Below, in pieces: positions 30,236 to 30,282 of a DNA stretch of 64,000 bases. The stretch comes from Escherichia coli. Lineage in GTDB: Bacteria > Pseudomonadota > Gammaproteobacteria > Enterobacterales > Enterobacteriaceae. How positions within the stretch are numbered: position 1 is the stretch's first letter; each line of letters starts with the position of its first letter. The notes under the pieces were generated by a model. It did no database searches. It saw only the letters and a program-made list of their open reading frames with translations, and had not been told where the DNA came from. The stretch is taken from NCBI RefSeq assembly GCF_016026235.1, contig NZ_CP065613.1. The stretch is one strand, 5' to 3'. Made by a program: the position numbers and the translations under genes.

Positions 30236-30282
30236 GTAACTTCCCTCTCGCGGGGGAAGTTACCTTTCTTTTTTTTTTGCCT
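30236..30282 (+). terminator. terminator-like GC hairpin plus long T-run with no obvious upstream + strand gene
   Basis: GGTAACTTCCCTCTCGCGGGGGAAGTTACC followed by TTTCTTTTTTTTTT, in the yqcE-ygcW intergenic region. Confidence 0.5.

Follow-up and report, generated by a model that had tools for sequence, protein, structure and literature searches.

A likely protein-dependent antitermination switch in the ygcW leader of Escherichia coli

The subject of this analysis is a hairpin in a 64,000-nucleotide stretch of Escherichia coli DNA (assembly GCF_016026235.1, contig NZ_CP065613.1), the whole of which is called the window. The hairpin sits in the 320-bp spacer between the divergent genes yqcE (ATG at 29983, minus strand) and ygcW (ATG at 30304, plus strand), and no plus-strand gene lies 5' of it. 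It is likely that it acts as the intrinsic terminator in a leader switch of the ygcW operon that works by protein-dependent antitermination, and the protein that opens the switch is most likely YgcP, a member of the GlpP family. An initial annotation, made from the letters of the window, had described an 11-bp stem with a T-rich tail between the two genes, and both are indeed present there. What it missed was the twin element before yqcE, the antiterminator stem, the link with ygcP and the fact that this genome has lost that gene.

Terminator and competing stem in the ygcW leader

The core of the hairpin is a perfect, G+C-rich 11-bp stem, in which GGTAACTTCCC (30235-30245) pairs with GGGAAGTTACC (30254-30264). 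Flanking A-U and G-U pairs lengthen it to a 19-bp hairpin (30229-30270, plus strand), and the tail 3' of it reads TTTC followed by ten T residues (30265-30278). As RNA, the hairpin folds with -31 kcal/mol, against -11.7 +/- 2.7 kcal/mol for dinucleotide shuffles (z = -7.19), and none of the 200 shuffles was as stable. A terminator scan over positions 29000-31500 (2.5 kb) returned eight sites where 2.3 were expected, and the hairpin, with 19 pairs of which eight are G-C, ranked as the strongest. When the same interval was searched against Rfam at a permissive E-value, only spurious matches were obtained, the best being rliE (25 bits against a threshold of 90), followed by microRNA and small nucleolar RNA models.

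In E. coli K-12, Term-seq places an RNA 3' end at 2900311(-), which has 40,640 reads and is classed as 'orphan' (Adams et al. 2021, PMC7815308). Its Rho score of 0.50 does not mark a Rho region, and its intrinsic-terminator score is 15.8. The 5' untranslated region (UTR) table of that study lists the end 38 nt before the ygcW start, on the sheet for lysogeny broth (LB) at an optical density of 0.4, and it is present once among the three growth conditions tabulated (PMC7815308). Through the sequence column, which covers -50 to +10 relative to the 3' end, the end was mapped to window position 30264, that is, the last C of GTTACC, with which the 11-bp core stem ends. The hairpin is a real intrinsic transcription terminator within the 5' leader of ygcW.

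The 5' part of this terminator also belongs to a second, smaller structure. The leader reads GTTACC-AGAGATAATGAGAAA-GGTAAC-TTCCC..., and it contains a 6-bp stem around a purine loop (AGAGA..GAGAAA). This small GTTACC/GGTAAC hairpin is the minimum-free-energy fold of the nascent ygcW RNA (-6.2 kcal/mol); in the complete leader, the terminator fold prevails (-35.7 kcal/mol). A weak antiterminator that overlaps a strong terminator is the classic layout in which a factor is needed to stabilise the weak structure. The two helices share a segment and are mutually exclusive, and covariation supports both of them.

Similarly, a paralogous leader is found on the opposite strand before yqcE, with the layout ATTACT-AGAGACC-TGAGAAA-AGTAAT-CCACC.... 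In both leaders, the 3' arm of the small stem also opens the 5' arm of the terminator. The nascent yqcE RNA folds with -1.4 kcal/mol and the complete leader with -23.3 kcal/mol, the terminator again prevailing. Here too a K-12 3' end is on record, at 2900556(+), 36 nt 5' of the yqcE ATG, with 1,557 reads and an intrinsic-terminator score of 11.4 (PMC7815308). A covariance model run over the 64-kb window recovered two true copies only, those of ygcW (about 88 bits) and yqcE (about 79 bits), together with their antisense shadows, and no third copy before ygcNOP or elsewhere in the window.

The ygcW leader lies downstream of a CRP site, TGTGATTACGATCACA, which began as an early computational prediction. 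CRP binding at this site was observed in vivo by chromatin immunoprecipitation in enterotoxigenic E. coli, and in vitro with a Kd of about 1.7 nM. The site is kept, with at most one mismatch, in 49 of 49 Enterobacterales spacers. In these, it mostly lies 43.5 nt (range 42.5-46.5) upstream of the A in front of the ygcW-type antiterminator stem, and anywhere between about 80 and 290 nt from the opposite leader. The near-fixed distance and the conserved TAAAAAT point to a probable transcription start at about A30213, which would put CRP at about -42 to -43, in a class II geometry. With such a start, the 5' arm of the antiterminator would form the extreme 5' end of the RNA. The supplements of Cappable-seq work list no coordinate within 29003xx-29005xx. 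RNA polymerase was reported to bind the spacer in a study based on systematic evolution of ligands by exponential enrichment (SELEX), and another study predicted Crp activation of yqcE-ygcE.

A sigma-70-like match, TTCTCA-18-GATAAT (window 30204-30233, minus strand), was also noted antisense within the ygcW leader hairpin, and the same hexamers were chosen as the yqcE promoter in the SELEX paper. If it were used, the yqcE transcript would begin about 215 nt before the ATG and would cross the CRP site.

YgcP and the occurrence of the leader element

In intact K-12, the operon runs ygcW-ygcU-ygcS-ygcR-ygcQ, and the adjoining ygcN-O-P genes are oppositely oriented. YgcP is a full-length match to Pfam G3P_antiterm (PF04309, the GlpP family; E = 1.4e-62) and is labelled 'putative anti-terminator regulatory protein' in RefSeq; its solved relatives are 3kts and 1vkf. 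Relatives of YgcP were searched for in one genome per species, which gave 64 loci. Exactly two divergent copies of the leader element were found in 49 of the 50 Enterobacterales loci, found via YgcP, that reach the ygcW-yqcE spacer. A GlpP-family gene lies in or next to the regulated locus in intact E. coli, in 49 other Enterobacterales species and in Firmicute loci, and is absent from this window. The loci without a motif match are on contigs that end too early, with the addition of L046.

Both atypical loci can be described briefly. In the exception to the two-copy rule (L033, Limnobaculum eriocheiris, 13856-13985), ygcW and yqcE are 130 bp apart, with one palindromic hairpin between A9 and T9; two near-identical leader terminators, as seen in the relative L037, appear to have recombined there, with loss of both promoters and both antiterminator stems. 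L046 (Serratia microhaemolytica) has a ygcP homologue that is 70% identical and stands without the ygc/yqc catabolic genes in the 7-10 kb to each side.

Pairing in the leaders was examined in 94 copies aligned with MAFFT, in which GAG and GAGAAA of the loop are invariant columns. Of the cells of the terminator helix, 87% are paired, and its covarying pairs include AU 69 / GC 24 and UA 63 / CG 26. For the antiterminator helix the figure is 85%, against 16-54% with slid partners, and GC 52 / AU 27 and UA 52 / CG 24 are found among its pairs. Column 37 of the alignment, which is the first position of the shared arm, covaries with its partner in each helix: column 20 in the antiterminator and column 75 in the terminator. 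About 14 copies with three extra loop nucleotides (GTTACT-GAA-AGAGA) were misplaced by MAFFT and cmsearch, and the antiterminator pairing was therefore re-measured by an anchor-based script. Of the 97 distinct copies, 92 have the 6-bp complement without a fault, with 13-18 nt of loop between the arms, against 1.4 expected from shuffled upstream segments. The arm pairs were tallied over a fuller set, including the Firmicute copies and the glpD leader of Bacillus subtilis. The commonest were GTTACT/AGTAAC (37), ATTACT/AGTAAT (28), GTTACC/GGTGAC (15) and GTTACC/GGTAAC (12), followed by GTTACT/AGTAGC (5), GTTGCT/AGCGAC (4) and GTTGCC/GGCGAC (1). All wobbles are U.G on the sense strand, which favours pairing in RNA over a DNA palindrome.

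The element is also found beyond the Enterobacterales. Covariance-model matches occur in Firmicute loci with YgcP-like genes, namely in Thalassobacillus (57.7 bits), in a Bacillus sp. with two copies and in five Listeria species, where the motif has the same relative position. The YgcP-like proteins of these motif-bearing loci are 55-59% identical to YgcP. A Firmicute copy reads TATACT-N7-GTTGCT-AGAGAATTGAGATA-AGCGAC-TCC...GGAGTGCGC-T7; the Firmicute copies carry a compensatory change of A-U to G-C and lie directly after the TATACT -10 element and before the first operon gene. The downstream genes are the same set in another order, encoding a short-chain dehydrogenase, an oxidase linked to flavin adenine dinucleotide (FAD), an FGGY kinase, a transporter of the major facilitator superfamily (MFS) and subunits of an electron-transfer flavoprotein (ETF). 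YgcP-like proteins of 54-62% identity were seen in Listeria sensu lato, Bacillus, Thalassobacillus, Clostridia, Sporomusa, Vibrio hannami and Photobacterium. Where loci of Listeria, Bacillus and Thalassobacillus were examined (L057-L064), the YgcP-like gene adjoins the same enzyme set. This suggests that regulator, RNA and pathway spread horizontally between phyla as one module.

In B. subtilis, the 5' UTR of glpD was shown to give GlpP- and glycerol-dependent control, even to foreign promoters (Han et al. 2022, PMC9604022). The sequence of this leader, taken from Table S4 of the same paper, contains GGTC-cTGAGATGAGGAGA-GACC, and GAGA+GACC+ACAGC... makes up the 5' arm of a terminator of -47 kcal/mol. 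Judged by eye, the glpD and ygcW leaders are identical in architecture.

More distant members of the GlpP family were sampled through representatives that are 31-50% identical to YgcP. In seven of the eight leaders examined beside them, a two-GAGA-box loop overlapping a terminator was recognised by eye. The leader before an iron-containing alcohol dehydrogenase (Fe-ADH) gene reads GTTGGC-AGATGATGAGAAA-GGCAAC-TTCC...T8; the one before a glpA-like gene, GGCT-GAGATTGAGAG-AGCC; the one before a glpD-like gene, GGCT-ATAGAAGATGGAGA-AGCT; and the one before glpF, GTATTT-GGAGAAAAAGGAG-AAATAC. GTAC-AGAGACGAAGAGAA-GTAC precedes a glpP homologue that is followed by genes for a glycerophosphodiester phosphodiesterase (GDPD) and a tripartite ATP-independent periplasmic (TRAP) transporter. 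Two further leaders read GGC-GGAGATGAAGAGA-GCC and GGG-TGTGAGAGTGAGAGAAT-CCC. The cargo beside these distant homologues is unrelated (glpF, glpK, glpA-like, Fe-ADH, GDPD/TRAP), and the motif thus follows the protein family rather than the ygc enzymes.

On balance, the evidence leans towards a broader proposal in two parts. The first is an undescribed YgcP antitermination regulon in K-12 and about 50 other Enterobacterales species, in which YgcP would recognise a two-GAGA-box hairpin on two divergent CRP-driven leaders and so turn on a catabolic island. The second is that the small stem, the GAGA-N-GAGA loop and the terminator overlap form the general recognition element of G3P_antiterm proteins, in Firmicutes and Proteobacteria alike and whatever the cargo. 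If this is true, regulons could be predicted from the signature for the more than 1,200 G3P_antiterm clusters that were detected.

Proposed mechanism, rival explanations and known systems

In the mechanism proposed here, the CRP-activated promoter would start the RNA at or just before GTTACC (about 30213), and its first 28 nt would fold into the weak hairpin GTTACC-AGAGATAATGAGAAA-GGTAAC. By default, the terminator would displace this hairpin, with GAGAAA+GGTAAC+TTCCC pairing with GGGAA+GTTACC+TTTCT. Transcription would then stop about 30 nt before the ygcW start and leave a leader RNA of about 50 nt. YgcP, which by analogy with GlpP is the presumed binding protein of both leaders, would, once loaded with its inducer, bind the GAGA-box loop and the stem. 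It would thereby sequester GAGAAA+GGTAAC, and with it 12 of the 19 nt that make up the 5' arm of the terminator. The short distal helix that remains would be unable to act with the U-tract, and the polymerase would continue into ygcW. The paralogous switch on the opposite strand would govern yqcE-ygcE likewise. As for the inducer, it may, speculatively, be the phosphorylated product of the YgcE kinase, a suggestion that follows the analogy with GlpK, glycerol-3-phosphate and GlpP.

Several points weigh against this picture. The mapped 3' end of the ygcW leader lies at the base of the core stem and not in the U-tract, and one must suppose that the RNA is processed or trimmed once transcription has stopped; if the polymerase stopped in the U-tract and the 3' end were then cut back as far as the stem, the end at 30264 would result. 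The ygcW start is a position deduced from conserved spacing, and the SELEX study chose other hexamers as the ygcW promoter, TTGACA-16-TGTGAT, which overlap the CRP site. The link between YgcP and the leaders comes from co-occurrence and from the analogy with GlpP, and the primary-sequence likeness to the B. subtilis glpD leader is confined to the GAGA boxes and the architecture. Moreover, the whole Enterobacterales cluster is syntenic, and co-occurrence by itself cannot separate YgcP from its neighbours; it is separated from them only by the Firmicute loci and the loci of distant homologues, and the family-wide loop alignments were made by eye, without a statistical model. Lastly, no leader motif was found within 7-10 kb on each side of the orphan ygcP of L046, whose target, if any, is elsewhere.

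The initial annotation had offered three readings of the hairpin, namely an attenuator or leader element of ygcW, the 3' end of a small RNA, and a relic. The first is the one upheld, in view of the position downstream of a conserved CRP-dependent promoter region and 25-40 nt before the ygcW start, the Rho-independent 3' end and the overlap with an alternative stem. The second is true only trivially, in that a short, terminated leader transcript builds up, and the third holds in part and for this strain only, through the loss of ygcP. The two findings whose lack would have spoken against the element are both present: an abundant K-12 Term-seq 3' end lies at the hairpin, and the element is kept, with covariation, across about 50 species.

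The rival explanation that survives best, though it is unlikely, is a plain, unregulated leader terminator or insulator that damps the CRP promoter into ygcW, with the upstream inverted repeat being incidental. The hairpin is strong, terminated RNA is abundant in LB, and nothing is left in this window to open it, all of which would suit such a device. However, it leaves unexplained the conserved stem with its compensatory changes, the three-way covariation and the invariant GAGA boxes, as well as the duplication on both divergent leaders and the recurrence by GlpP-family genes with unrelated cargo.

That the hairpin ends a separate small RNA of about 50 nt, one that acts in trans, is given a small chance only. 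The 40,640 Term-seq reads of the 'orphan' end do indicate that a short, stable RNA ending in a hairpin accumulates. Yet at all loci, and on either strand, the design stands ahead of the first operon gene, a hallmark of cis-acting leaders, and its variable parts are the tops of stems and not a single-stranded seed. No seed-like conserved single strand was found in the alignment apart from the GAGA loop, and no Rfam family matched. ygcW and yqcE are also absent from the supplements of a small-RNA prediction study based on RIL-seq (ligation and sequencing of interacting RNAs), which counts as weak negative evidence against a small RNA.

Smaller still is the chance of a protein-independent riboswitch, in which the small hairpin and its loop would bind a metabolite directly. 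Such a device would share the antiterminator/terminator architecture, and its 3' end within a 5' UTR would resemble those of known riboswitches in the same Term-seq table. The candidate aptamer, however, is merely a 6-bp stem with a loop of 14-18 nt that matches no Rfam family, and the element co-occurs across phyla with a family of RNA-binding antiterminators; its counterpart in B. subtilis requires GlpP.

It is very improbable that the inverted repeat GTTACC-N15-GGTAAC, although it lies just 3' of the promoter region, is a DNA operator bound by a DNA-binding regulator. About 25 copies pair only via U.G on the sense strand (GTTACC/GGTGAC, GTTACT/AGTAGC, GTTGCT/AGCGAC); on the opposite strand these wobbles are A.C, a mismatch in DNA, and the operator was rejected on this ground. 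Furthermore, the 3' arm of the stem also covaries with the 3' arm of the terminator, and no DNA-binding regulator is among the cluster genes examined. Ribosome-mediated attenuation through a leader peptide, for which there is a 43-codon open reading frame (ORF) starting with an ATG inside the loop (30227-30358), has next to no probability and was rejected, as the triplet is ATG in only 47 of the 95 distinct copies (elsewhere AAG, CTG, CAG, ACG, AGG and others) and the ORF overlaps ygcW out of frame.

The antitermination switch proposed here may be compared with known systems. Its closest parallel is the GlpP system of B. subtilis (glpD, glpFK and glpTQ leaders), whose regulator is of the same family as YgcP (PF04309). 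In glpD, as in ygcW, the promoter is followed by a short stem with a purine loop of two GAGA-like boxes, an intrinsic terminator and a catabolic operon, and the 5' arm of the terminator reuses the 3' box of the loop and the 3' arm of the stem. In both systems, a global catabolite regulator acts on top, CcpA there and CRP here. In contrast, the stem differs in sequence and length (GGTC/GACC in glpD, GTTACY/RGTAAC here), and about 14 nt precede it in the B. subtilis leader. Two divergent leaders in one spacer and a Gram-negative host are further differences. The cargo here (a short-chain dehydrogenase, an FAD-linked oxidase with ETF, an FGGY kinase and MFS transporters) is unrelated to glycerol catabolism, and the inducer is therefore probably not glycerol-3-phosphate.

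Another group of comparable proteins is BglG, SacY and LicT, which act on leaders with a ribonucleic antiterminator (RAT) and a terminator (E. coli bgl, B. subtilis sacB) and control sugar-catabolic operons. There, as in ygcW, the 5' half of a strong leader terminator is shared with a weak antiterminator hairpin, which needs a protein if it is to persist. The fold is different, CAT-PRD in the BglG type and G3P_antiterm here. No CAT_RBD or PRD domain was present in the Pfam matches of the cluster proteins examined, and the RAT consensus was absent, with no Rfam match. The BglG family is controlled by phosphorylation through the phosphotransferase system. GlpP-type control, on the other hand, is by ligand binding (PMC9604022).

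The short, repeated (N)AG-type boxes in single-stranded RNA by a terminator also recall HutP on hut and the trp RNA-binding attenuation protein on trp. HutP is described as binding XAG-rich regions. These proteins belong to unrelated families; HutP destabilises the terminator directly, and the trp protein promotes termination.

The literature found on ygcW, ygcP and the other cluster genes consists of lists of CRP sites, SELEX tables and one prediction of the Crp regulon, with nothing on antitermination, and no paper on the target of YgcP was found. GlpP-type antitermination in B. subtilis and the CRP site are already known, and both 3' ends have been published among supplementary data. No report was found of the two E. 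coli leaders as a GlpP-family switch, of the antiterminator structure, of the two-GAGA-box loop or of its family-wide spread. ygcP and the neighbouring ygc/yqc genes are among the K-12 genes still without a function. Two concrete candidate RNA targets give an experimental handle on the inducer, and hence on the substrate of the pathway; for each of them the 3' end has been mapped, the alternative structure is defined and a putative protein-binding loop is conserved. In K-12, bgl is the textbook example of a catabolic operon whose antitermination is mediated by a protein and controlled by a ligand. If the proposal is true, the ygcW/yqcE system would be added to bgl in this organism, and the GlpP family would gain an RNA signature for regulon prediction.

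State of the locus in this genome

The coordinates of the features are collected in Table 1. The locus has been hit by two insertion sequences (ISs). IS1 interrupts yqcE, and the event that brought in ISEc60 removed about 5.2 kb relative to K-12, including the 3' two-thirds of ygcU. No YgcP, YgcS, YgcR or YgcQ was found by tblastn in the window.

Table 1. Features of the ygcW-yqcE locus, in window coordinates
Feature	Position	Strand	Basis or remark
CRP site TGTGATTACGATCACA, perfect consensus half-sites, centre 30169.5	30162-30177		sequence
Candidate -10 of the ygcW leader promoter, TAAAAAT	30199-30205	+	kept 5' of GTTACC in relatives
Antiterminator 5' arm, GTTACC	30214-30219	+	pairs with 30235-30240
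Purine loop AGAGATAATGAGAAA, two GAGA-like boxes, proposed protein-binding site	30220-30234	+	GAG and GAGAAA are invariant columns
Shared segment GGTAAC (antiterminator 3' arm and terminator 5' arm)	30235-30240	+	covariation with both partners
Intrinsic terminator hairpin, 19 bp; 11-bp core 30235-30264	30229-30270	+	fold, scan, Term-seq, covariation
U-tract, TTTC + T10	30265-30278	+	sequence; T-run invariant in alignment
ygcW, short-chain dehydrogenase (Pfam adh_short), first gene of the controlled operon	30304-31088	+	
yqcE leader twin	30005-30078	-	covariance-model match, 78.8 bits
Twin 5' arm, ATTACT	30069-30064	-	
Twin loop, AGAGACCTGAGAAA	30063-30050	-	
Twin 3' arm, AGTAAT	30049-30044	-	
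Twin terminator	30055-30016	-	Term-seq 3' end 30019
Twin T8	30015-30008	-	
yqcE, MFS transporter, IS1-interrupted	27929-29983	-	
IS1 (IS1A-like) in yqcE	about 28486-29248		splits yqcE into residues 1-245 (29983-29249) and 243-426 (28480-27929)
IS4-like ISEc60 copy	31577-32897		replaces ygcU from codon 149 onward, ygcS, ygcR, ygcQ, ygcP, ygcO and the 3' end of ygcN

Both leader switches are intact in sequence, and the presumed activator and most of the cargo are gone. With ygcP deleted and yqcE split, the ygcW switch in this genome is most likely locked off, its terminator permanently closed. The hairpin here is a functional terminator in a decaying locus; decay of the pathway by two IS events has left the control element intact but functionless in its role as a switch.

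The transposase of the ISEc60 copy is itself split into two ORFs of 347 and 145 aa. This IS is uncommon in E. coli, with a near-full-length copy in only 14 of 5,426 complete genomes, often on plasmids of about 290 kb, which is a hint that the window stems from an IS-rich genome of the Shigella or EIEC type.

In the part of K-12 that is deleted here, Term-seq also records a 3' end at 2892741(+), about 85 nt into ygcN, which follows a G+C-rich hairpin unlike the GAGA-box leaders (PMC7815308). Elsewhere in the window, a short CRISPR-like array with a period of 61 bp and the repeat GAGTTCCCCGCGCCAGCGGGGATAAACCG lies at 24271-24523. It abuts an intact ORF for a DDE transposase of 429 aa (24507-25796), and the arrangement looks like an IS in or at an array in the queE-ygcE interval.

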